This document shows positions 6,189-26,520 of a DNA stretch of 64,000 nucleotides, one piece after another. Made by a program: the position numbers and the translations under genes. The notes beneath the pieces are model-generated. The model saw only the letters and a program-made list of their open reading frames with translations. It was not told the origin of the DNA and ran no database searches. This DNA comes from Escherichia phage PECP20: the sequence record OQ873415.1. One strand, given 5' to 3'. Each line of letters begins with the position of its first letter. The first letter of the stretch is position 1.

Positions 6189-6770
6189 CTAAAAATTCAA
6201 CATTTTCAAATGAATGATTTTGTATAACCGAGATAAAGGGTCATATTCTAAGTCTTCAATTTCTACAATCTCAAATCTAGAGATACCTGAGACCATGTAT
6301 TCTTGTTCAGATTCAATCATATCTAGGACGTCAACACGTTTTTCTTCCATAACATGCTTAGGGTTCTTTCCGGCGAGTACAATGTTAACCATGTTTTGGT
6401 AGTAATCGAAAATGAACGGAGCATTCCTGAGACTAAGAATAGTGTACGTTTGATATTCCCAACTCCCAGAGAACTGTCTGGCCGTACCAAAGTCTGTTGT
6501 AAACGATGTTACTCGTCCAGGAGACCAATGGCATCCTACAGATAACAATGAAAGATGTTCTACTTCTTCTGGAGTTACACCACGGTAGAGTTCTACTGGT
6601 ACTGTAGAAGTCATATGCTTACGAACAAGACGGTCTAATTCATAGTGGAAATCTGGGTCTTCCTTATAATCAGTGCAAGCCCAGAGAATGTTTTGTTCTT
6701 GTTTAGTGAATTTATCATCAATTAGTGCTGCGAGATATTCGCGTTCTTGAAGTTCAGATTGACATGTCAT
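6189..6770 (-). CDS. modB: ADP-ribosyltransferase, ModA/ModB family
   Basis: 193 aa paralog of the previous ORF (YRG, TSFT, EQEY). Confidence 0.6.
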   Translation of the reverse strand: MTCQSELQEREYLAALIDDKFTKQEQNILWACTDYKEDPDFHYELDRLVRKHMTSTVPVELYRGVTPEEVEHLSLLSVGCHWSPGRVTSFTTDFGTARQFSGSWEYQTYTILSLRNAPFIFDYYQNMVNIVLAGKNPKHVMEEKRVDVLDMIESEQEYMVSGISRFEIVEIEDLEYDPLSRLYKIIHLKMLNF

Positions 6771-8623: not shown

Positions 8624-9145
8624 TTAGTAACCATTATCCTGACGTTCAAAGTTGTGTTGGTTTTTCAAGTAGTAAAGTTTAAAGATTTCTTCAGCAGAAA
8701 GACCAAGACCTTGGAACATATTTAGAACGAAATGCAGAATATCAATCATTTCAAATTTAATTTCAAGCTGGTCTTCAGGAGACAGTTCATCGATACGACG
8801 ATTTCGATATTCAGCATGTTGTGCTTTCCATGGCTTCCATACACTGCTAGCGGCTTTTTCACCATTGCTCATACCACCAAGTGAAGTCAGCAGTTCACGG
8901 AATTCATCATCAATATAATCTTTCTGATTACGCAGCCAATCAACAACATCACCAGCAGTAGCCAATTCATCAGGATGTTTGTTATGTTCAGGCTTGTCAT
9001 TTGCCAGACGAACCTGTAAAGATTTCTGCATATCAAGCATTACCTGCAGTGGGTCTTTATCTTCGTGAATCAGAGCATTAAAATAAGCTTCTTCTGCTTT
9101 ATCAACACCAGAAATAAGTTGTGAACATTCATTAAAGTGCGCCAT
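8624..9145 (-). CDS. 56: dCTPase/dUTPase (gp56)
   Basis: Strong similarity to T4 gp56 as recalled; start set at MAHFNEC ATG (9145) rather than track start 9160. Confidence 0.9.
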   Translation of the reverse strand: MAHFNECSQLISGVDKAEEAYFNALIHEDKDPLQVMLDMQKSLQVRLANDKPEHNKHPDELATAGDVVDWLRNQKDYIDDEFRELLTSLGGMSNGEKAASSVWKPWKAQHAEYRNRRIDELSPEDQLEIKFEMIDILHFVLNMFQGLGLSAEEIFKLYYLKNQHNFERQDNGY

Positions 9146-15613: not shown

Positions 15614-15955
15614 TTAAAAGAATTTAAATTTTTTCTTGGTCCGTTCATTAAAAGCTTGTTGTACTTGCATTGTAACACATTTTTCAACATGTGGTGCAAG
15701 TTCTGCTTTTCTGTCCTGGTCAAGAACTGCAAAGTCCATTACGATTTTACCATCAACCCAGTCTAGTTTTGTAATATAGACTATATGATGAGAACCATCT
15801 TCAAGTGTAATCAGAATCTCTTGAATGACATTTTCCATTGCTGAACGGATAATTTTAAGAGATTCATTAAACACTCGTTCTTTGCGAATGTCTTCCCCTT
15901 CCGAAGAAGGGGATTCATCAACGATTTCTAGATTTAAATCATCGAGATTATTCAT
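15614..15955 (-). CDS. hypothetical protein in the gene 40 position
   Basis: In-frame ATG (MNNLDD) at 15955 overlaps uvsX stop by 8 nt; track start 16075 would sit inside uvsX. Confidence 0.5.
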   Translation of the reverse strand: MNNLDDLNLEIVDESPSSEGEDIRKERVFNESLKIIRSAMENVIQEILITLEDGSHHIVYITKLDWVDGKIVMDFAVLDQDRKAELAPHVEKCVTMQVQQAFNERTKKKFKFF

Positions 15956-17120
15956 CGAAATCTTCCATTTCGTCAAGGTCGTTTTCAATATCTGCTGCAG
16001 ACGGAGCATCAGAAGCTTTAACCGGAACTTTAGTTGTTGCTTTGCAATTAATAAGGTCGTTAACAGCGTCATCAACTTCTTTAATAGAAGAGATAGCGCC
16101 TAGTTTATATTTAGTTTCAATTGCATCTCGGAAAGGTTTGTGTTTAAACAACGGTCCCCAGAATTCTACACAATCAGTAGCTTTAGCACGCCACGATTTC
16201 TCTTCACGAATCATTTCACCTGTTTCTTCGTCAAGGAATTCACGAGCATACCAACCAGCTTTAGGCTTAACAACAAATCCAATTTCAGTTGCCATTTCTA
16301 ACAAGCCACTGAATGGATCGATACCGCCGTCAAAATTAACCGTGATTGGGAAAGTAGATTTCTCTTTAACTGTACGAGATTTTTCTGCTTTCAACGTGAA
16401 GTCATAACCGGTCAATTCTGTACCTTCTTTAACCTGACGTTTAGAGATAAAGAATACAGTGTTAGCAGAGTAAAGAATACCTGTACCACCACCCATAATC
16501 TCTTTAGGATATAGTCCGCCGATTTCCATTGCTGTATGGTTGATTGCAACACACGGAATATCTTTAATAGTCAGATAAGGAGTCACAATACGGAACAGAG
16601 ATTTAAGTGCCTTAGCACGAGACATATCACCTACGACTTTCTCGTTCAATGCATCTTCGGTTTCTTTCTTAGATGCAGTATTACCGATTGAATCGATAAA
16701 GATAATAACTTTATCACCGCGTTCAATAGCGTCAAGCTGATTAGTCATATCAACTTTAAGTTGTTCTACAGATTGAATCGGAGTATGAACTACACGGTCT
16801 AAATCAACACCCATTGAACGAAAATAAGATTCTGAAGCACCGAATTCCGAGTCATAAAACAAACAGATTGCATCTTTATATTTCTTCATATACGCTGCAA
16901 CCATAGTCAGCCCAAACAATGTTTTAAAGTGTTTAGAAGGAGCAGCAAAAATAGTTAAGCCTGATTGCAATCCTGCATTCAGAGCACCACCTAGTGCGAT
17001 ATTCAACATCGGAATACGAGTAGGGACTTCATCACGATTATTAAACAGCTTAGACTTAGTCAAGTCTGCAGTCATTTTAGAAGTAGAAGCTTTAATCAGA
17101 CGAGATTTTAAATCAGACAT
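15948..17120 (-). CDS. uvsX: UvsX recombinase (RecA/Rad51 family)
   Basis: 390 aa; near-colinear with T4 UvsX as recalled. Confidence 0.95.
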   Translation of the reverse strand: MSDLKSRLIKASTSKMTADLTKSKLFNNRDEVPTRIPMLNIALGGALNAGLQSGLTIFAAPSKHFKTLFGLTMVAAYMKKYKDAICLFYDSEFGASESYFRSMGVDLDRVVHTPIQSVEQLKVDMTNQLDAIERGDKVIIFIDSIGNTASKKETEDALNEKVVGDMSRAKALKSLFRIVTPYLTIKDIPCVAINHTAMEIGGLYPKEIMGGGTGILYSANTVFFISKRQVKEGTELTGYDFTLKAEKSRTVKEKSTFPITVNFDGGIDPFSGLLEMATEIGFVVKPKAGWYAREFLDEETGEMIREEKSWRAKATDCVEFWGPLFKHKPFRDAIETKYKLGAISSIKEVDDAVNDLINCKATTKVPVKASDAPSAADIENDLDEMEDFDE

Positions 17121-17218
17121 TGTATTTTTCCATAGGCATCATTATATTTTACTCATGTTTAAAAGATAAGACGATTATATACTAAGGGTTATACAGCATT
17201 TAAAACTTTAAATGGCTC

Positions 17219-17767
17219 TTAACGAGCCCATTTGATGATTTCTGTAATCAAACCATTACGTTCGCTTGCATTAAATCCTATAATTTTGTTAGCACCATCA
17301 TGATTAAGTAATTGATACGTTTGGATTTTGTTATGAATTGCAAACTCTTCAAAATGTGAAATGACTGTATTAAAACCGAATGAAGACAAAGTAATAAGGT
17401 CGTCTTCAAAACTTTCAGTCATTTCATTACGTGTTAAAATAATTGTGAACACATCATGGTTTTGGCAAAGACGAACATAGTCCTGTTCATAAACATCAAG
17501 AACAGAGTCCGCATCTTGCCGAATACGTCCATAAACCCAGTTACTAATATATCCACGGTCTAACAGATAAATCTTAGTAGGGTCTAAATAATTCAACATC
17601 GTTTCGAAACAGCCAACTTCATTTCGAGACTTAACATCGAAACGTCCATCAACTGTTCGTTTAGGAAAATCAATCTTTACATATCTTTCACTAATTTCCA
17701 TTATGTCATTAATGAAAGTTGTTTTACCAGCATTATCTGGGCCGTCTACTAAAATAATTTTAGCCAT
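17219..17767 (-). CDS. thymidylate-kinase-like P-loop nucleotide kinase
   Basis: 182 aa; P-loop GPDNAGKTT; DRGY...Y lid-like motif; occupies part of the T4 beta-gt slot. Confidence 0.7.
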   Translation of the reverse strand: MAKIILVDGPDNAGKTTFINDIMEISERYVKIDFPKRTVDGRFDVKSRNEVGCFETMLNYLDPTKIYLLDRGYISNWVYGRIRQDADSVLDVYEQDYVRLCQNHDVFTIILTRNEMTESFEDDLITLSSFGFNTVISHFEEFAIHNKIQTYQLLNHDGANKIIGFNASERNGLITEIIKWAR

Positions 17768-17768
17768 T

Positions 17769-18668
17769 TTATTCCTCGATTACGACATCTTCGTATTTAG
17801 GTATATTATATGGTGAAGAAATTAAAGCATTAAAGTAGATGAACTCACCAAGACCTGGATGGAATACTTCTTCAGGATTTTCGAAATATTGAATCTTCGG
17901 GCGTCCTTTAAGAATTTGATAGTACTCAGTTTTAGTTGGTTTAAAAATTCGAATCAGCGCTTCTTCAGGATACTTATTTCTGTCGAAGCTATTATTTGGA
18001 TCGGTTATATAAAGCGGTTGACCTAATTGAATTGCACATTCAACCACTTGTTCAAAACGATAACATGGGTCACTAATTCGAAATGGATGAAAAATACCAT
18101 CTAGATGAATAGGAGCCAAATCACCTACAAGACGCTGCATGATGGAAGGACGTATAACTTTCTGAGTTACGATAATCTTATTACCATCTGCACCTGCGTT
18201 AACCAGCACTTCTTTTTGACGTTCATTCAACACGGTAGTTTGAAGTGAACGATTAACTGACAACATATCGGTTTTTAAGAATTCGTCAATATAAAAACGT
18301 TGTTTATTAGGGTCTGCAGTGATATTGAAATTGAATTCTACATCAAAAGCGCCGCCATAACCAGTGATATCTGTGATTAGAAAATCACAATCATAATAAT
18401 CAATTAATGAATCAACCACAAATTCATTTTCAGTCCAGAAATATTTACGAGTGTTATACGCGTTATCTTTATACCATAATGGAACAAACTTAAATTCTGG
18501 GAAAAGACGTTCGCATTCTTTAATATCAGATGCATTACGTGGATATGTAATCACATCACCCGGATTAGCACGGTGCAAATGAAGTTGGAAGTTGCCATCC
18601 TTAAGGATAGCATACTGTCCAGTTTCATAAGACCGCATACTCAAGATTGGTACGCGGAAAATAGCCAT
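17769..18668 (-). CDS. hypothetical protein (299 aa) in the beta-glucosyltransferase slot
   Basis: ORF between kinase and gene 42 homolog; no similarity to T4 beta-gt recognised. Confidence 0.6.
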   Translation of the reverse strand: MAIFRVPILSMRSYETGQYAILKDGNFQLHLHRANPGDVITYPRNASDIKECERLFPEFKFVPLWYKDNAYNTRKYFWTENEFVVDSLIDYYDCDFLITDITGYGGAFDVEFNFNITADPNKQRFYIDEFLKTDMLSVNRSLQTTVLNERQKEVLVNAGADGNKIIVTQKVIRPSIMQRLVGDLAPIHLDGIFHPFRISDPCYRFEQVVECAIQLGQPLYITDPNNSFDRNKYPEEALIRIFKPTKTEYYQILKGRPKIQYFENPEEVFHPGLGEFIYFNALISSPYNIPKYEDVVIEE

Positions 18669-19384
18669 TAGTCAAGGAATCCTTTAACATAATCAAAATC
18701 ACGTTCAAACACATGGGCGCTTACCATGGTATGAGTATAATCACCAACTTCTACACCGCATTCGTTAGCGATATAATGAAGTAATTTTCCTTGGAGATAA
18801 AAATCCAACTGCATAACAACAGCACAGTTCTGAGAACGCATATGACAGTGGGTATAAAGCTTACCATCACGAATATAATAAGTTACTGAGTCAGTACATG
18901 GATATTCAAGTGTTTCGTCCGAATCAAGCAAAGCCTGATCAGAACTTTCTAGAATTTGGAACACAACTCTTCGAGAGTTAGGTTTTTCTTTAAGTTCTTT
19001 TAGAAGAGTTGGTAATTGGGCCGCAATGCGAGGGCCATAGAAAGTGTTGAAGTTCGCCGGCAAAACATCTGATTTTGGTTTAGAAATAAATTTAGCGACA
19101 TTAGGATATGCCTTAAACGCTTCTTCTGCGTTGGTACCACCAGAAATCATAAACTTCCAGAAGTCTTCGGCATATTCATAAGAGATGCGGTTAATACGTG
19201 GGTCGGTCATTTTGAATGATGATGGAGTGTCAACAACTACTGTCATAGACCCAATTTCATTACAACGTCCAATACGAGAATCAGTTACGAATTCGGGGTT
19301 TTCTAAAATTTCACGATTGACTGCTTTAAATGCGGTTTGAAAATCTGCGGCTTTGATATATTTCATTGTGTTATGTTTTCCCAT
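18668..19384 (-). CDS. 42: dCMP hydroxymethylase-like (thymidylate synthase fold)
   Basis: 238 aa; thymidylate synthase-like core (PCTDSV...MRSQNCAVV); syntenic with T4 gene 42 but diverged. Confidence 0.7.
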   Translation of the reverse strand: MGKHNTMKYIKAADFQTAFKAVNREILENPEFVTDSRIGRCNEIGSMTVVVDTPSSFKMTDPRINRISYEYAEDFWKFMISGGTNAEEAFKAYPNVAKFISKPKSDVLPANFNTFYGPRIAAQLPTLLKELKEKPNSRRVVFQILESSDQALLDSDETLEYPCTDSVTYYIRDGKLYTHCHMRSQNCAVVMQLDFYLQGKLLHYIANECGVEVGDYTHTMVSAHVFERDFDYVKGFLD

Positions 19385-19426
19385 GTTTACCTCAATACAA
19401 TTTATTATATACTCAATTCATAAAGC

Positions 19427-19666
19427 TTATTTGAATTTCTTGACAATGTTGATATAACGTAAAGCTTCAGAATCTATACTTCCAAGAACACTATGAAGGA
19501 ATGCATCAGTGTAGTATTCCAATTGAACAGGTTCTTTAATCACTTTAGCCGCTTTGGTTTCAAACAGGCCCATAAGGGCCTTTTTAAGAATTTGTTCGTT
19601 AGTGTTCAGTTTCATAGTCAAAATCTCTTCGTTAAGTTTATAATTAAAACTTTTTCTAGAAATCAT
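19427..19666 (-). CDS. hypothetical protein (79 aa)
   Basis: ORF; 4-nt overlap with upstream gene. Confidence 0.5.
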   Translation of the reverse strand: MISRKSFNYKLNEEILTMKLNTNEQILKKALMGLFETKAAKVIKEPVQLEYYTDAFLHSVLGSIDSEALRYINIVKKFK

Positions 19667-20823
19667 TCCGGGTACCTCAAAGCGTCATCAGAGTTAGTTA
19701 TATCAATAATAGATATGGAGTTTTCTGCTAACCCGTTTTTAGATAATTGACGTTTATAATACCTTTCACAATATGTACACGTTGACCCACAGATTTCATT
19801 AGCACAATCAAAATCTGGATGTCTGAACCACCTTTTTTCTAAAAAGCCATCTAACAAAGAGGTTTCAATATTTACTGTATGTGAAAACTCAGTCTCATTT
19901 TCAAGAGTGAAAATAGTCTCTAAAGGCTTCCACAGTTCTAACAAATTACCTTCAAACTTTTCAGAAGCGTATGCTTCAAGAACTTTCAAAATGTAGTCTG
20001 TGCTACCTGTACGTCCTGAAACTTTGAATTGAGTGATACCAATATCATTATAAAGTTTCAAATCTTGAGGACGAACAAAACGAGTTCTCAACCAGTTAAA
20101 TGGGTCTGTATCACGAGCTTTAATACAGTGCTGCATAGGATATCCATTTAAGGATTTAGCATCATCAGCGGTAACATCAGTACTATGGAAAATATAGCAA
20201 GAGTCACGATAACTACAATGTGTTGTATACCCTTTACCAGCATTAGAACAGAACTCATTTACAAGAACTTCAAATATTATATTGTTCTTATTGCAAAACT
20301 CTGCTGCACGCTTCAGGAAAGAAACTGAACGGTTCTTATGAATTCCGCAACAGACCTTTTTGATGTTATATTGGTCATGTAAGTATTTGATTTGAGTTAC
20401 CGCATCGACATGTAGAATTGTTGAAACTTCAATCTCAATATCTTTATTGACTTCACGAACAATTTCCATAACAACAGGGTTAGCGATAGTAATACGCCAT
20501 ACGCCTATTGACCAAAGATACTGAACATAATCCTGAATAGCTTTCTTCTTCCACTCAACTAGTTCTCTTTTTGAACCAGGATTTATCGTGTTGAGTGTAT
20601 AGTTAAAGCAAATACCTAATTCGTTACAACGTTTAACGTAGTCTTCTAACATCTTTTTGTCAACGTCAGGAAGCCTAAAATCAGGTCTGGCTGCTACAAA
20701 AGCCATTTCTCTTGTAGAGCCATATACTTCGTTTATCAAGCTATTAGGATAGGTTTTATTGAGCTCTACGATTTTATCAAGAAGAGCTAAATCAAAATTC
20801 GTTCCGATTTTAAAAGTATTCAT
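19663..20823 (-). CDS. hypothetical Cys-rich protein, possible Fe-S enzyme
   Basis: 386 aa; C-terminal C-x4-C-x3-C-x-Y-C cluster plus scattered Cys; family not assigned. Confidence 0.7.
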   Translation of the reverse strand: MNTFKIGTNFDLALLDKIVELNKTYPNSLINEVYGSTREMAFVAARPDFRLPDVDKKMLEDYVKRCNELGICFNYTLNTINPGSKRELVEWKKKAIQDYVQYLWSIGVWRITIANPVVMEIVREVNKDIEIEVSTILHVDAVTQIKYLHDQYNIKKVCCGIHKNRSVSFLKRAAEFCNKNNIIFEVLVNEFCSNAGKGYTTHCSYRDSCYIFHSTDVTADDAKSLNGYPMQHCIKARDTDPFNWLRTRFVRPQDLKLYNDIGITQFKVSGRTGSTDYILKVLEAYASEKFEGNLLELWKPLETIFTLENETEFSHTVNIETSLLDGFLEKRWFRHPDFDCANEICGSTCTYCERYYKRQLSKNGLAENSISIIDITNSDDALRYPE

Positions 20824-20879
20824 TTTTTTGCATCTCGCGTTAATTGATGCGATGGTTTTTGCAGGTCTTACTTAAATTA

Positions 20880-21281
20880 TTATAGATTTGGTTTATATGA
20901 TTTAAATGTTTCGAATTCGCCTTTATTCATAAGAGCTTTGAATTCGTCAGGACGCATAGCTTTGTCGTCGATAATCCAATCATATACTGGTTTATGTGTT
21001 AGCAAATTATGGTACTTCAAACCAATGTTTTCCAAGTTCTGAATCAGACTTGGGAGAATGTCAATTGCTATACGACCAGGACCTACCGACTTCATACCAC
21101 GGGCAGTGTAAAGCGTTATGGTATGCCCTGCATCATACAGGGCATTAATGGCAGACACCATTTCGACGTCTGGTTTGAAGTTCACGTAATCACGATTGTT
21201 ATTCCACTCTGTTATACAATCATCGACATCAAAACAAAGATTAAGCATGTTTTCTACACGGTGCATTAGATTCGTTCCCAT
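20880..21281 (-). CDS. HAD-superfamily phosphatase (sugar-phosphate phosphatase-like)
   Basis: 133 aa; N-terminal FDVDDCIT (DxD nucleophile motif). Confidence 0.65.
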   Translation of the reverse strand: MGTNLMHRVENMLNLCFDVDDCITEWNNNRDYVNFKPDVEMVSAINALYDAGHTITLYTARGMKSVGPGRIAIDILPSLIQNLENIGLKYHNLLTHKPVYDWIIDDKAMRPDEFKALMNKGEFETFKSYKPNL

Positions 21282-22951
21282 TGATGAGTGATATCGCCGC
21301 CGATTGGACGATAGGAAACACCAGTTTCTTTATCAGTTAGTACCCATTTACCAGGATTTTTTGTAATCAGAGTAGCCGTTACAGGTTCTGCTACGTCATA
21401 ACTAATAGAGCCGTCTTGAAGTACACGGCCCATGTTACGTAATTGCTTAGTCAGAAGTTCCATACCTTTATAATATGCGGCAACCGCTTTAAGTGGATTA
21501 TTCTTGAAATAACCACCTAATGCAATCCAGATAATTGCTACTGCCAAATGATGATACTCGTTAAACGAACTCATCTTTCCATATTTGTAAACTAATGGAT
21601 TGATGTTAATAGTCAAATTACAAGTTGTTTCATCAATAGTAAACTGACCCCAGGTCGGATTAGCATTGAATTCATCATAACCTGAAACAGCATAAAGCAC
21701 TTTAGCTTCATCATACAATTTTGGCCCGTAAATCTTGGTTTCACCAAAATATCCACGAGGGTCGATAAACTTGACTTCGCCGTTATCGGTAATCATAGTA
21801 TTACTGAAGTTCGGGTCACCATGAATAACAGAGTACTGTCCCTGAGAACGGTTATGATAACGAATAAGATGTTCTAAAGCTTGTTTCAACATTGGCTTCA
21901 GACGTCCAATCTTAGTGTAGTTCACATGTGTGATTTTACCAAATGAATCAATCAATGGCTGAATGCTTTCACAACGATCAATAACTTTCGTATAGAACTC
22001 TTTAGTGAAATCACGGCGAACAGTTTCAGGACTTACAAAATAAGTGTCCGTGCTGAATTTCAGTGCATCTAAAATTGCATCAACAATTTGTGGACGAGCA
22101 AGACTTGATTTGGATTTAATATATTCAAATGCCGGCTTACCTTTAATACGTTCCATTTCAAAATTATTTTCATTTACCGAAACTAACTGAGGAACTGAAT
22201 CTGATTTCACTTTCAAATACCATGAAATCTCATCTTTTTGAAGAGCTCGACCTTGTTCGGTTAACGCGAATTTAGTTACAGTTTCTTCGCCAATTTCAAC
22301 TGCATTAAAACTACGATTCAGTTCACGAACTTCATGAGCCTTTTCAAGTTTAGGCATATCACCTAAATCAATTAGATTCATAAGCTCTGATTTATTGAAT
22401 GCACTGCCGTAAAGGAATTCTACGAAATCACGACCTTTGCAGTATTCGTGAATTTCCTCATCAGTAGAACCCATGTAGAATTCCCAGTCTTTGAACTGAT
22501 AAATTCCTACAACATTACCACCTGTTGAACCTACGTTAGTGATATTTTCACCATCGAAATTATATCGACATTCATCACCCTTAACATAGATTGCGTTAAC
22601 ATTCCAAGACCATGAACCAAAGTCAGGAATAATATCACACCAGTTAACAATTACGTTATGGCCATCTAAATCTTTGTATAATTTAGCAAGAGCATAAGCA
22701 GAACCATACGCTTCATCAACTGTACGAATAGTCACATTGAACCCTTCTTGCTCGCAATAAGCTCGAACAGTTTCAGCAAATTTTGAATGAACTACTACAA
22801 TAATTTCATCTGCGCCAAGGTCAGAATAAATTGTATACAAATTGCTCAGAATAGTGTCTTGTTTATAGTTAACAAGCACCTTAGGAATATGGTGAGTAAT
22901 TGGATATAAACGAGTTGCTAATCCAGCACCAAGAATAACAGCTTTTTTCAT
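21266..22951 (-). CDS. bifunctional sugar-1-phosphate nucleotidyltransferase / APH-type sugar kinase
   Basis: 561 aa; N-terminal MKKAVILGAGLATRLYP (RmlA-like); C-terminal HGDPNFSN...IDPRG (aminoglycoside/choline-kinase-like). Confidence 0.8.
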   Translation of the reverse strand: MKKAVILGAGLATRLYPITHHIPKVLVNYKQDTILSNLYTIYSDLGADEIIVVVHSKFAETVRAYCEQEGFNVTIRTVDEAYGSAYALAKLYKDLDGHNVIVNWCDIIPDFGSWSWNVNAIYVKGDECRYNFDGENITNVGSTGGNVVGIYQFKDWEFYMGSTDEEIHEYCKGRDFVEFLYGSAFNKSELMNLIDLGDMPKLEKAHEVRELNRSFNAVEIGEETVTKFALTEQGRALQKDEISWYLKVKSDSVPQLVSVNENNFEMERIKGKPAFEYIKSKSSLARPQIVDAILDALKFSTDTYFVSPETVRRDFTKEFYTKVIDRCESIQPLIDSFGKITHVNYTKIGRLKPMLKQALEHLIRYHNRSQGQYSVIHGDPNFSNTMITDNGEVKFIDPRGYFGETKIYGPKLYDEAKVLYAVSGYDEFNANPTWGQFTIDETTCNLTININPLVYKYGKMSSFNEYHHLAVAIIWIALGGYFKNNPLKAVAAYYKGMELLTKQLRNMGRVLQDGSISYDVAEPVTATLITKNPGKWVLTDKETGVSYRPIGGDITHQWERI

Positions 22952-22993
22952 GTTGAAGTCCTCATTGGTAAGTAGGTGTATTGTACACTATTC

Positions 22994-23136
22994 TAGTTAA
23001 AGCATTCATACTTTGCCTGTAGACCAATCATAATCCATCCAATTACAAGTGTTGGAATCATTACTGGAGCCGTTAAGCCCCAGTAGATAGTCATGGCAAG
23101 CATCAATAGTAAAAGTCCTATTGTTATTGCTTTCAT
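22994..23136 (-). CDS. small hydrophobic peptide (47 aa)
   Basis: ATGA overlap with stop of upstream SIS gene; hydrophobic; below ORF-track size cutoff. Confidence 0.35.
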
Positions 23137-23768
23137 TGTTCGCCTCGTAACATGGCACCTAGTGCACCACCAGGGTGGAACTTAAGGAAGTCATTAGAGG
23201 TAAATCCACGTTCAGACGAAAGGTTGATAGCAAACGTATCGATAAGCGCTAACAACAATGTAGTGGACATGGTCGGAGCCAGAGAATTCTCATCAACCTC
23301 TACCGCGATGCCTGTACAGAACGTATAATCAAAAAGAGCTTCGTATTCTTGCGGAATGTCAGGGTTACAATGTAACAGAATCTGTTTAACCTGAGGACGA
23401 ATCATACGAAGATGTTTAGCAACACCTATCATTTCTTCAGTCTTACCAGAACGACTGATGTGAACTAATACATCATTAGGTGCAATAAATCCTGCGTCGC
23501 CATGAGAATAATGCCCGGTGTTCAAATACATGCTAGGAATACCTAGTGAAGCAAAAGTCTCGGAAGCTTTAGTTGCGATATTAGCGTTCTTACCAACACC
23601 TGTAATAATTACTCGGCTTTCATAATTACTCAGTCCAGGGCGACGAAGAGTTTCAAGAATAGCATTATATCGGGCAGAGTTTTGACTAATTACTTTAGCC
23701 ATAGTGGCAAGAGATGAAGCTTGTTTTACGATTGCGTCAATAGCGATAGTGATTGGTGTAGTTTTCAT
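23133..23768 (-). CDS. SIS-domain sugar-phosphate isomerase (arabinose-5-phosphate isomerase-like, no CBS domains)
   Basis: 211 aa; ITGVGKNANIATK...HGDAG...ISRSGKT...HPGGALG closely resembles KdsD/GutQ SIS domain. Confidence 0.8.
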   Translation of the reverse strand: MKTTPITIAIDAIVKQASSLATMAKVISQNSARYNAILETLRRPGLSNYESRVIITGVGKNANIATKASETFASLGIPSMYLNTGHYSHGDAGFIAPNDVLVHISRSGKTEEMIGVAKHLRMIRPQVKQILLHCNPDIPQEYEALFDYTFCTGIAVEVDENSLAPTMSTTLLLALIDTFAINLSSERGFTSNDFLKFHPGGALGAMLRGEQ

Positions 23769-23808
23769 ATTTCTCTCATTTAATTAGTTTACCGTCCATG
23801 GCATTATA

Positions 23809-26520
23809 TCAAAAATCGAACATATCGAACAGAGATGCTTTCTTCTCGTAATCGAGTTTCGCTGCTGATGTGAATCCTTCAAGTGGTTTAATAAATGTCT
23901 TCTCAAGGAGAACAGTGTAGTCCATCCAATGAAGTACGTCGTCTTTAATTAAATCTGTGATTTCAGTACCAGAAGGCCATGCGATACATTTATCACCGAA
24001 CGGGTTTCCATCACGTAAAGGCAGAACGTATACCTTTTCGCCTTCTACAACTTGTGGAGCATCAATATTACCTTTGATAGCTCTGTTATATGTCAGAATT
24101 CCACGAATATGGAACGGGCATTTAGGACCAGGGAATCCACCAACGTCATATTTAGCAATGTTATTCGCAGAAGATACTGACGCGATGCTAATATAATTCA
24201 ATTGACGGAATTCTTTTTCAAACTCTTTAAAATATTCTTGTAATGATTCTTCACCTTCTTGAAGCATACGACGAATACATTCTTTAAGAGCTTTCTGTAC
24301 TGCTTTAGGGGTCGAAGATTTCTGTGTTTCGAGACCCATGATTTTGAGTTTAGGCTCAGCGTATCTGGTTCCTTCCATATCCCACACGTTTAATGCATAA
24401 CGTTTCTTACCAGTCCAGAATCCACCAATACCTTTAGAACCGAGTGGAGGACCAGCAATAGCTTCTCGGTCCATGAACATCAAATGTTGCTTATTATTCA
24501 TGTATTCACACATTTCACGGAAACCTCTATCAATAGCCGGTTCCATACGTTCACGAGCGAACTTATCTAAGAAGTCTACCCAATGGTTGGTATCACGGAA
24601 TTTAGATTCACCAACCTTATCAATAATTTTATCTGCAGATACGTAAATAGAGTCTGTATCACCATAAAGAACGAAAGCTTCACCTTCTGTACCACAAACT
24701 TCGTTCAGATATTCATTAACTTTACGTTCAATCCACTGTAAAGCCATTTGACCAAATGTTGTGATTGCAGTTGCATTACGCAAATCGTAATAACGGAACC
24801 AAACGTTACCAAGTGCACCATAAAGCGAGTTGATGAGCAATTTACGGTTAATTTGTGCAGTCATACCTGCAACTTCAGTACGTTGAGCTCTAAACAACAT
24901 TTCATTAAGAGATTTAGCAGACAACTTTTTAATCTTTTCTTTAATCTCATCGCTGAAGTCGAAACGATAATCAACATCTAATGGTTCGTCAACAGAAAGA
25001 TTAGGATTATGCAACGCCTCTTTAATTATTTCACCATTACGTTGAGCCGCAAGCATGTAACCTTTATGTTCTTTACGTTGATTAAAGACCTTAGTGATTT
25101 CAGTTGGAACTACACCATCACGGTCTTTATAATACATCATGCCATTAGGAGAACAACTGTACACATCTGAAGGACGTTCAGCGATTGCGTTAATATAATC
25201 ATGCAGTGGAGCTACTTTAAACGTTCCTGCTATTGTTTCCGGGCTAATATTCACTTGGCGAATAATACTTGGATACAGGGATGTAAGGTCGAAACTCATT
25301 ACATATTTGTATCGATTTGGAATAGGTTCCTTAACAAAAGCGCCAGGATAAGGTTGAACCGGGTGAGAACGACCTTGTGGAATCACCTTGTTCTGCTCTT
25401 TAAGGCTATTAAAAATAATAGCATCCCATGTTTTAATTGGGCTAAACACAGATTGAATCTGTATCTTAGCATAATAACCCATGTCCAAACTCAAGTTGAT
25501 GAACTGACGCTTAGCATCAATTTGCAATACACGATACACGTCGATAATGTTATAAGAAATATATCGTTGGTGATTGCTTTCACGAAGCTTAGAAATAGGG
25601 CCGTCATATTTCAGTTTACCAACGTTCAATTCAAATTCTGAAATGTAATCCAGAGAATACGACGGTTGATTGGTAAAAGAGAATTTTTTGTAAAGGTCAA
25701 TGTAATCAAGAACAGAGATACCGAACAATGTAATGATTTCACGAGAACCATACATGTTTTCGATAACTTTAACACGAGTTTTACGATGTGGTGATAAACG
25801 TTTTGCTGTGGATTCACCAAAAATATTCTTGATTCTGTTATACACATATGGAATATCAAATGACTCAACGTTCCATCCAGTCAAAATGACAGGAGTTTTC
25901 TGTTGCCAGAAGTTGAGATATTCCATCAACAATTCTTTTTCGTTATCGAACGGCATATAAATGATTTTATCGATAATTTCGGATGGAACTTCATCACCAC
26001 CTTGTTCTTGAAGCTTAGCAGCGATTTCAATAGACCATTCTTCTACATTACCATATGGAGAATTCAATAGATCAAATACGTAGAACCTGTCGTCAATTGA
26101 GTCATAATGAGTGATAGCATCAATCGGATGTTTTGCTTGTGACGGCTCAGGGAACCCATCCGGAGATGTTACTTCGATGTCGAAGTTAGCCACACGAATT
26201 TTTGTATGGTCGTATTTGATTTCATAGTTATAAGTGTCAGACAAATACGCCAATTTGAAATCGTCCATGCCAAGTGCTTCAAGTCCGATATCTTCCATGC
26301 GTTTAATCCATTGGGAGGCATCACGCATATTAGCGAACAACTTACGAGTACACGGCTTACCGTAGATATCGAAATATTTCGTAGCCTGACTTTCTGGACA
26401 ATGTGCAAACAACGATGGCTTATACTCTACTTCACGAGTACGTTCACGGCCATTAGAATCGATGTAACGTTCAAAAATTGAATCACCAATCTGTTCAACC
26501 GTTAAGTAAAATTCTTTCAT
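23809..26520 (-). CDS. 43: DNA polymerase (family B, gp43)
   Basis: 903 aa; exo motifs (FDIEV), polymerase motifs (DxxSLYPSII, YGDTDS); N-terminus matches RB69 gp43 as recalled. Confidence 0.98.
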   Translation of the reverse strand: MKEFYLTVEQIGDSIFERYIDSNGRERTREVEYKPSLFAHCPESQATKYFDIYGKPCTRKLFANMRDASQWIKRMEDIGLEALGMDDFKLAYLSDTYNYEIKYDHTKIRVANFDIEVTSPDGFPEPSQAKHPIDAITHYDSIDDRFYVFDLLNSPYGNVEEWSIEIAAKLQEQGGDEVPSEIIDKIIYMPFDNEKELLMEYLNFWQQKTPVILTGWNVESFDIPYVYNRIKNIFGESTAKRLSPHRKTRVKVIENMYGSREIITLFGISVLDYIDLYKKFSFTNQPSYSLDYISEFELNVGKLKYDGPISKLRESNHQRYISYNIIDVYRVLQIDAKRQFINLSLDMGYYAKIQIQSVFSPIKTWDAIIFNSLKEQNKVIPQGRSHPVQPYPGAFVKEPIPNRYKYVMSFDLTSLYPSIIRQVNISPETIAGTFKVAPLHDYINAIAERPSDVYSCSPNGMMYYKDRDGVVPTEITKVFNQRKEHKGYMLAAQRNGEIIKEALHNPNLSVDEPLDVDYRFDFSDEIKEKIKKLSAKSLNEMLFRAQRTEVAGMTAQINRKLLINSLYGALGNVWFRYYDLRNATAITTFGQMALQWIERKVNEYLNEVCGTEGEAFVLYGDTDSIYVSADKIIDKVGESKFRDTNHWVDFLDKFARERMEPAIDRGFREMCEYMNNKQHLMFMDREAIAGPPLGSKGIGGFWTGKKRYALNVWDMEGTRYAEPKLKIMGLETQKSSTPKAVQKALKECIRRMLQEGEESLQEYFKEFEKEFRQLNYISIASVSSANNIAKYDVGGFPGPKCPFHIRGILTYNRAIKGNIDAPQVVEGEKVYVLPLRDGNPFGDKCIAWPSGTEITDLIKDDVLHWMDYTVLLEKTFIKPLEGFTSAAKLDYEKKASLFDMFDF

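Follow-up and report, generated by a model that had tools for sequence, protein, structure and literature searches.

A 64,000-nt stretch of DNA from Escherichia phage PECP20 (sequence record OQ873415.1), referred to here as the window, was analyzed around positions 20880 to 23768, which a sequence-only reading had flagged as a compact pathway to a nucleoside diphosphate (NDP)-activated pentose; all coordinates are positions of the window. The region contains three long minus-strand open reading frames (ORFs), of 211, 561, and 133 amino acids (aa), encoding a predicted SIS-domain isomerase, a predicted fusion of a nucleotidyltransferase and a kinase, and a small predicted HAD phosphatase. With a probability of about 0.92, these three genes supply the activated sugar for the arabinosyl-5-hydroxycytosine hypermodification of DNA in RB69-like (Mosigvirus) T-even phages. 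The three-gene pathway has already been published, so the earlier reading is correct but not new. The genes and their predicted domains are as follows.

23133-23768, minus strand: predicted D-arabinose-5-phosphate (Ara5P) isomerase, an SIS domain without the CBS pair, orthologue of RB69 gp55 (Pfam, NCBIfam, PDB)
21266-22951, minus strand: fusion protein, 561 aa (ORF, Pfam, AlphaFold2 model)
22337-22951, minus strand: predicted N-terminal sugar-1-phosphate nucleotidyltransferase domain of the fusion, aa 1 to ~205
21422-22312, minus strand: kinase domain of the fusion with an APH/choline-kinase fold, aa ~214-510, a predicted anomeric kinase
21266-21421, minus strand: C-terminal tail of the fusion, aa 511-561, a small beta-rich extension plus the stop codon (AlphaFold2 model)
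20880-21266, minus strand: predicted small cap-less HAD phosphatase, 128 aa, orthologue of RB69 gp51 and HY126 AfhF (TIGR01689, PDB, motifs)

The SIS protein was examined against profile and structure collections. Pfam detected the SIS domain at 9.6e-10 and no CBS domain. Among NCBIfam models, kpsF ranked first (8.5e-32), followed by KdsD (3.4e-30) and GutQ (2.5e-22), with the next family at 9e-07; no GmhA model matched, and no GmhA was present among the PDB matches even at E≤10. The top PDB match was 3etn, a capsule-associated isomerase (9.7e-25), and the matches below 1e-12 (3etn, 5uqi, 2xhz, and 3fxa) are Ara5P isomerases or unassigned phosphosugar-isomerase/SIS proteins. The active-site residues of Escherichia coli KdsD (K59, H88, E111, E152, and H193) are conserved at five of five positions. 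K60, H89, E112, and E157 align with the first four of these in the alignment to 2xhz, and H198 lies within an HPGGALG motif that is also aligned in 5uqi and in the CBS-construct entries 3k2v and 3fna. The chain ends 13 residues past this motif, and for that reason the CBS pair is absent. By these comparisons the SIS protein is KdsD/KpsF/GutQ-like and not GmhA-like, as the sequence-only reading had judged from its motifs; that reading had also noted the lack of CBS domains.

The fusion protein was characterized by sequence and by structural modeling. Residues 3 to 99 matched Pfam NTP_transferase at 1.3e-09 (38.4 bits, gathering score 21.2), and homologues at 42 to 44% identity carry PF01636 APH. 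The AlphaFold2 model, built with 48 homologues, had a mean predicted local distance difference test (pLDDT) score of 94.2 and a predicted template-modeling score of 0.91. The N-terminal domain, a Rossmann-like nucleotidyltransferase fold, matched LicC, RmlA, and MurU, while the kinase domain, a bilobal kinase fold, matched choline kinase, APH, maltokinase, and 5-methylthioribose kinase; the kinase half is only weakly detected by sequence and is clear by structure. In the tail, strands were modeled at residues 528 to 560 (pLDDT 82 to 90). G10, R14, and K24 of the nucleotidyltransferase signature G-x-G-T-R...K are invariant in the 48 homologues, down to 29% identity, and the second Gly of the signature is Ala12. 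The kinase catalytic set (K227, E241, H377, D379, N384, and D397) is invariant in the same homologues, and the expected kinase motifs are present: a beta3 Lys, an alphaC Glu, HxDxxxxN, and a metal-binding Asp. The model and these motifs indicate a nucleotidyltransferase of the RmlA/MurU/LicC kind fused to a kinase of the APH/choline-kinase fold, the two-domain architecture proposed earlier.

The homologue of the fusion in Shewanella phage Thanatos is 54% identical. Three homologues of 777 to 790 aa (P0106, P0112, and P0118) carry an extra C-terminal extension instead of SIS and HAD domains. The extension of P0106 has a weak match to a cupin-type "mannose-6-phosphate isomerase" domain, P0112 is so named in one source, and the extensions may represent another isomerase that supplies the same kinase and transferase.

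The start of the HAD gene was reassigned. Its first-ATG ORF spans 20880 to 21281 and encodes 133 aa, whereas the second ATG, at 21266, overlaps the fusion stop codon as TAATG; the RefSeq annotations of p000v and RB69 and the crystallized construct 9iqw have the latter start, giving 128 aa. The gene was placed at 20880-21266 for these reasons, and the 133-aa ORF is most likely over-extended. The coordinates of the flagged region stand, with this start corrected. The protein had no Pfam match; NCBIfam gave TIGR01689, "capsule biosynthesis phosphatase" (1.9e-13). It is identical at 128 of 129 positions (4.1e-87) to PDB 9iqw, an entry titled "capsule biosynthesis protein" and presumably the structure of HY126 AfhF, and it aligned with the HAD-fold structure 1xpj at 1.5e-10. 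In the alignment with 1xpj, HAD motifs I to IV correspond to D13-V-D15, T54, K92, and D100-D101. The small protein is, on these motifs and matches, a HAD phosphatase, again in agreement with the earlier assignment. A 56-bp intergenic spacer, with a sigma-70-like hexamer pair (20906-20879), separates the HAD gene from the downstream U32-family gene. At the same junction, Erwinia phage Virsaitis27 and Yersinia phage phiR1-RT have an inserted gene for a homing endonuclease of the Seg type (L011:3852-4490 and L013:424-1062).

Several observations bear on whether the three proteins act together. The SIS, fusion, and HAD genes form a contiguous group and, as their arrangement indicates, are translationally coupled. 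In phages of Escherichia, Erwinia, Yersinia, and Acinetobacter the group adjoins a gene for a thymidylate synthase (ThyA) homologue; the Klebsiella and Morganella phage loci, fetched over stretches that stop short of the SIS gene, have the fusion, HAD, and ThyA-homologue genes side by side. Homologues of the fusion were found in 368 phage records and of the SIS protein in 269. The three genes are not a product of chance, being conserved in hundreds of phage genomes.

A second line of evidence came from distant homologues of the fusion (~30 to 35% identity, ~890 to 955 aa), in which HAD, KdsD-type SIS, nucleotidyltransferase, and kinase domains are combined in one polypeptide. The SIS domain of these four-domain proteins is also CBS-less and ends in HPGGSLG. 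Their HAD domain belongs to the beta-phosphoglucomutase-like subfamily and is not similar to the phage HAD protein; thus, the phosphatase step is conserved and the protein that performs it is not. The fusion to KdsD-type SIS and HAD domains in distant homologues ties the phage fusion to a pentose-phosphate substrate. Judged by domain content, the four-domain proteins would constitute a full enzyme set from ribulose-5-phosphate (Ru5P) to NDP-arabinose on giant-virus-like contigs, three of which are listed here.

L003:8001-10781: P0085, four-domain protein, 926 aa, on a contig with RNA polymerase Rpb2, Rpb10, and MutS-HNH genes
L006:6001-8862: P0089, four-domain protein, on a contig with a family-B DNA polymerase of >1,500 aa
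L008:5545-8283: P0108, four-domain protein, on a contig with an SNF2 helicase and a C48 peptidase

The source of one family member, P0091, is a eukaryote transcriptome. A literature search on arabinose pathways in giant viruses returned nothing relevant beyond one annotation mention for TetV-1. No homologues of the ThyA-like protein, the glycosyltransferase, or the nucleotide kinase of the phage module were found in the 6- to 8-kb flanks fetched around the giant-virus fusions or around relatives of the U32-family gene.

To place the region, positions 17000 to 24000 were compared with phage genomes. The best megablast match was Escherichia phage p000v (99.2% nucleotide identity), of the genus Mosigvirus, whose type phage is RB69, and at least 80% of the query was covered in 151 phage records. 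In a translated comparison, all nine counterparts of RB69 gp45 to gp55 were 88 to 100% identical, with their order kept, between uvsX and gene 43. The SIS protein (211 aa) is 96.2% identical to gp55, residues 1 to 218 of the fusion are 100% identical to gp53 and residues 219 to 561 are 99.4% identical to gp52, the HAD protein (128 aa) is 98.4% identical to gp51, and the remaining module proteins (gp45 to gp50 and gp54) are 88 to 100% identical. The minus-strand gene run of the module is flanked by genes for RecA-like UvsX (15948-17120) and a family-B DNA polymerase (23809-26520), and the GC content of ~37% is even over the whole window. A promoter scan of 17000-24000 gave 18 promoter-like sites, compared with 26.3 in shuffled sequence, that is, below chance, and terminator-like sites in the same interval were at background level; the scans are therefore uninformative on operon structure.

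The old RB69 record divides the fusion gene in two, and resequencing traced this to a one-base error, giving a single 561-aa protein (Thomas et al. 2018). In the window, the fusion ORF and a 299-aa glycosyltransferase ORF are each intact, in contrast to the old record, in which each is in two parts because of sequencing errors. Public labels for these genes are misleading: the HAD phosphatase is called "phosphoheptose isomerase" (RefSeq, PHROG 1238), the fusion "bifunctional protein GlmU" or "mannose-1-phosphate guanyltransferase", and the 5-hydroxy-dCMP (5-hydroxy-deoxycytidine monophosphate) synthase "deoxycytidylate 5-hydroxymethyltransferase". The Bas47 orthologue is already named in GenBank as a "putative enzyme involved in UDP-arabinose biosynthesis" (UDP, uridine diphosphate).

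The published record accounts for the purpose of the pathway. Arabinose was found on RB69 DNA by Thomas et al. (2018), who proposed ORF055c and ORF53_52c, within an eight-gene module between gene 43 and uvsX, for UDP-arabinose synthesis. RB69 virion DNA carries arabinose on every cytosine (Thomas et al. 2018; Lee et al., NAR 2026). The modified base is arabinosylated 5-hydroxycytosine, with the ThyA homologue gp48 making 5-hydroxy-dCMP, and gp55, gp52:53, and gp51 have been proposed to convert Ru5P to NDP-arabinofuranose (Lee et al., NAR 2026). For HY126, the route is given as Ru5P to Ara5P, arabinose-1,5-bisphosphate (Ara-1,5-P2), arabinose-1-phosphate (Ara-1-P), and UDP-arabinofuranose (UDP-Araf); AfhE is described as an Ara5P kinase and UDP-Ara pyrophosphorylase in one protein and AfhF as a phosphatase, dependent on Mg, that turns Araf-1,5-P2 into Araf-1-P (He et al. 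2026, as cited by Lee et al., NAR 2026). A UDP-arabinose-type nucleotide sugar is not known to be made by enterobacteria (Lee et al., NAR 2026, discussion). The NDP-pentose product named in the sequence-only reading agrees with the roles that the literature gives to the RB69 orthologues; that the product serves to arabinosylate cytosines of the phage DNA had gone unrecognized there.

Together, these data suggest the following working pathway: (i) the SIS enzyme would divert host Ru5P to Ara5P, as its homology and conserved catalytic residues indicate; (ii) the kinase domain of the fusion would phosphorylate the anomeric C1 hydroxyl, converting Ara5P and ATP to arabinofuranose-1,5-bisphosphate; (iii) the HAD phosphatase would remove the 5-phosphate to leave Ara-1-P; and (iv) the nucleotidyltransferase domain of the fusion would combine Ara-1-P with UTP to give UDP-D-arabinofuranose. 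UDP-Araf would then be spent by the phage DNA arabinosyltransferases, one encoded at 17769-18668 and the second a homologue of RB69 gp3, on an acceptor of 5-hydroxycytosine in DNA, which would be supplied via the predicted 5-hydroxy-dCMP synthase (the ThyA homologue, 18668-19384). Arabinosylation would shield the phage DNA from restriction and CRISPR-type defenses. Steps ii to iv are reported, in the paper that cites the work, to have been shown biochemically for the near-identical HY126 proteins AfhE and AfhF (He et al. 2026, via Lee et al., NAR 2026).

A number of points weigh against this interpretation. None of the three proteins reaches a curated NCBIfam cut-off. The SIS protein scored 110.8 bits against a required 203.7, and the HAD protein scored 50.5 bits against the 162 of TIGR01689. 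The kinase half of the fusion fell below the Pfam gathering scores for Fructosamin_kin (16.9 versus 22.4 bits) and EcKL (16.1 versus 22 bits). Interconversion of Ru5P and Ara5P by the phage SIS protein is something we infer from homology and conserved catalytic residues, and Lee et al. (NAR 2026) gave its RB69 orthologue the isomerase role from structure comparison only. UDP as the nucleotide is stated in the literature and cannot be read from the sequence. The enzyme assays behind the pathway were done with HY126 orthologues, not with the window proteins, and come to us through the citing paper. Nor do the sources agree throughout: the pathway is described as uncharacterized in an AEM paper of June 2026, and Table 1 of Lee et al. 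keeps a different order of steps. For the SIS protein, only profile positions 2 to 153 of 268 were aligned, because the protein ends at residue 211, shortly past HPGGALG. CBS-less Ara5P isomerases have a precedent in 3etn (220 aa); therefore, failing the cut-off and lacking CBS domains do not exclude this activity.

For the order of the kinase and phosphatase steps, the sequence-only reading had preferred the phosphatase first and had offered the kinase-first, ADP-heptose-like order as an alternative. In the phosphatase-first version the pathway and product are the same, with Ara5P converted to free D-arabinose, which is then phosphorylated at C1 and activated to NDP-arabinose. Known anomeric kinases of the APH fold, maltokinase among them, and the structurally matched 5-methylthioribose kinase act on nonphosphorylated sugars, in keeping with such an order. 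It is also the order of Table 1 of Lee et al. (NAR 2026), where RB69 gp51 "dephosphorylates Araf5p to Ara" and the C-terminal domain of gp52:53 "phosphorylates Ara to Araf1p". In the text of the same paper, however, AfhE converts Araf5P to Araf-1,5-P2 before AfhF removes the terminal phosphate (citing He et al. 2026), and the fold match in AFDB for the HAD orthologue is GmhB, a 1,7-bisphosphate 7-phosphatase. A free neutral pentose might, in addition, leak from the pathway. We regard the phosphatase-first order as improbable; the alternative that had been placed second corresponds to the order given for HY126.

A heptose or capsule pathway, in which the SIS protein would act as a KpsF supplying Ara5P for 3-deoxy-D-manno-octulosonic acid (KDO) and the host envelope rather than the phage DNA would be modified, draws on several database names. 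RefSeq and PHROG name the HAD gene "phosphoheptose isomerase", and the family that matches the HAD protein best in NCBIfam is one of capsule biosynthesis phosphatases. In the PDB, a capsule-associated isomerase matches the SIS protein best, and HddC, a heptose-1-phosphate guanylyltransferase, is among the top fold matches of the fusion. The "phosphoheptose isomerase" label, however, sits on a HAD-fold protein and is a misannotation. Similarity of the SIS protein to GmhA is absent at any threshold in NCBIfam and PDB, so a heptose/GmhA assignment of that protein was ruled out. No KdsA, KdsB, or KdsC homologues are present in the module by ORF list and Pfam, all phages examined have the module directly adjoining genes for a DNA glycosyltransferase and the 5-hydroxy-dCMP synthase, and it is on the cytosines of RB69 virion DNA, every one of them, that arabinose is found. 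This explanation is very unlikely. A role of the fusion in salvage, as for AmgK-MurU or LicA-LicC (for N-acetylmuramic acid [MurNAc]/N-acetylglucosamine [GlcNAc] or choline), unconnected to the SIS and HAD proteins, can be dismissed with similar assurance, given that the fusion is only 14 to 20% identical to such enzymes, that its distant homologues are fused to KdsD-type SIS and HAD domains, and that Ara5P kinase and UDP-Ara pyrophosphorylase activity is reported, through the citing paper, for the HY126 orthologue.

The other genes of the module, together with a dCTPase gene elsewhere in the window, are as follows.

22993-23136, minus strand: highly hydrophobic ORF of 47 aa (RB69 gp54 region), conserved, "hypothetical" in p000v
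19663-20823, minus strand: U32-family "peptidase" protein (RB69 gp50; Pfam Peptidase_U32, 7.3e-11)
19427-19666, minus strand: ORF of 79 aa (RB69 gp49), in the chorismate-mutase slot of sister genera
18668-19384, minus strand: thymidylate synthase homologue, orthologue of the 5-hydroxy-dCMP synthase RB69 gp48 (Pfam Thymidylat_synt, 1.9e-15)
17769-18668, minus strand: putative DNA arabinosyltransferase 1, 299 aa (RB69 gp46:47, intact; 97 to 100% identical to RB69 gp47 and gp46)
17219-17767, minus strand: P-loop nucleotide kinase (RB69 gp45; PHROG 761 "thymidylate kinase", 5.6e-45; 98.4% identical to gp45; Lee et al., NAR 2026, Table 1)
8627-9145, minus strand: dCTPase (gp56 homologue, RB69 gp28), clearing dCTP from the pool of precursors (tblastn, 97.1%; Lee et al., NAR 2026, Table 1)

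Not mentioned in the sequence-only reading, the 47-aa ORF separates the SIS gene from the fusion gene. It begins at an ATG that overlaps the stop codon of the SIS gene (ATGA), an arrangement that points to translational coupling with the SIS gene, and its mean Kyte-Doolittle hydropathy is 1.32. In Erwinia phage Virsaitis27 the counterpart has an identical TIYWG-TAPVMIPTL core and ECFN C terminus; the ORF is missing from the Acinetobacter phage cluster that was inspected.

The ThyA homologue is 98.7% identical to RB69 gp48, for which Lee et al. (NAR 2026) indicate experimental confirmation, and near-identical to PDB entries 9iqc, 9ir2, and 9iqu, presumably HY126 structures. An automatic pairwise alignment with E. 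coli ThyA ran two residues out of register near position 169 (the D169N site); the assignment therefore rests on the identity to the tested gp48. The 299-aa protein had no Pfam or PDB sequence match, and Lee et al. (NAR 2026) class gp46:47 as a GT-B-like arabinosyltransferase. Its intact ORF agrees with the published view that the split in RB69 is a sequencing error. The homologue of RB69 gp3, the second arabinosyltransferase, falls outside the window; it would lie ~3 kb before position 1, which corresponds to RB69 position 6659. The 79-aa ORF is the least conserved of the module (88.6% identical to RB69), occurs in Mosigvirus-like phages only, and is often shortened to 47 to 58 aa in metagenomic relatives. 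It was considered as a diverged chorismate mutase and rejected, with no Pfam match at E≤10, no BLASTP alignment, and an hhalign probability of 0.1%.

The U32-family gene next to the HAD gene was analyzed further. Its RB69 counterpart, gp50, is tentatively listed as a "sugar or heterocycle reductase" in Table 1 of Lee et al. (NAR 2026) and is not discussed in the text. The gene was found in 221 phage records, each with at least 80% identity, and is far more conserved than the fusion. It was not found in Acinetobacter phages; the fusion and SIS genes are present in 57 of these. Direct inspection of the Acinetobacter phage cluster likewise showed no U32 gene. Ten Cys residues are invariant in the phage subfamily. 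The AlphaFold2 model (pLDDT 91) had the U32 TIM-barrel protein 5d88 as its best fold match, and beyond 5d88 the fold search returned only unrelated TIM barrels, with no gain in functional information. In Winklervirus, Marfavirus, Tegunavirus, and Gualtarvirus phages, an AroQ chorismate mutase gene (Pfam CM_2, 1.7e-11; PDB 1ybz, 3e-07) is found after the U32 gene and before that for the ThyA homologue; the corresponding loci are at L011:4492-6002, L012:1329-2731, L013:1103-2740, and L014:1115-2848. On other phage-like contigs, U32 relatives (50 to 58% identical) adjoin genes for dCMP deaminase, deoxynucleoside kinase, and deoxyribonucleotidase, and the uncharacterized ORFs beside them gave nothing significant in Pfam.

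Formation of 5-hydroxycytidine in 23S rRNA requires RlhA, a U32 protein that depends on the synthesis of prephenate, on iron-sulfur clusters, and on conserved Cys residues; prephenate is an oxygen donor for O2-independent U32 hydroxylases. Because RlhA makes 5-hydroxycytidine in this prephenate- and iron-sulfur-dependent manner, the phage U32 protein may be an O2-independent cytosine hydroxylase. By this analogy we tentatively propose a prephenate-dependent, iron-sulfur pyrimidine C5-hydroxylase providing an anaerobic route to 5-hydroxycytosine, although we would sooner expect the proposal to fail than to hold. Such a route may parallel the O2- and flavin-dependent ThyA homologue, much as TrhP and TrhO provide dual routes to 5-hydroxyuridine. 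In its favor, the U32 gene is missing, with the rest of the module present, where the host genus, Acinetobacter, is a strict aerobe. The chorismate mutase gene of the sister genera, the ten invariant Cys residues, and the nucleotide-metabolism genes beside the U32 relatives point the same way. A literature search for a link of U32 proteins or prephenate to phage hydroxycytosine found nothing relevant. If true, the proposal would mean that cytosine can be hydroxylated anaerobically in the gut.

Arabinose on every cytosine would amount, by estimate, to ~62,000 cytosines per ~168-kb genome at ~37% GC. Arabinosylation blocks restriction enzymes and CRISPR and shapes which defenses act on phage-therapy candidates. 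With the pathway in the literature from 2018 to 2026, the three-gene finding adds no new knowledge; its value is that of a positive control, a real pathway having been recovered from a reading of sequence only.

Comparison with known systems places the window proteins closest to RB69 gp55, gp52:53, and gp51 and to HY126 AfhE and AfhF, with which they are orthologous at 96 to 100% amino acid identity and from which they show essentially no difference. RB69 has the same gene order, the same site between gp43 and UvsX, and the same ThyA-homologue, glycosyltransferase, and kinase companions. With KdsD, GutQ, and KpsF the isomerase has the SIS domain in common, and with KdsD the residues equivalent to K59, H88, E111, and E152 and the His of HPGGALG. 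Unlike KdsD and GutQ, it lacks the C-terminal tandem CBS domains, as does the single-domain Bacteroides fragilis protein 3etn, and its product would feed a nucleotide sugar for DNA, whereas that of KdsD-type enzymes feeds KDO. AmgK-MurU and LicA-LicC provide the best structural matches for the fusion and use the same two folds in tandem to yield an NDP-activated product. Those, however, are separate proteins acting on MurNAc/GlcNAc or choline, whereas the phage domains are fused, with the transferase N-terminal, and the phage route has a phosphatase step between kinase and transferase.

In its logic the predicted route is that of the ADP-heptose pathway (GmhA-HldE-GmhB-HldE), which runs from an SIS-fold ketose/aldose isomerase to an anomeric kinase that yields a bisphosphate, a HAD phosphatase acting on the distal phosphate, and a nucleotidyltransferase, with kinase and transferase fused in one bifunctional protein in both. 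The parts differ. The HldE kinase is ribokinase-like and the HldE transferase cytidylyltransferase-like, whereas the phage would use a pentose, a KdsD-like isomerase, an APH/choline-kinase-fold kinase, an RmlA/MurU-like transferase, and a HAD phosphatase of the small EcbF/BcbF type rather than the GmhB type.

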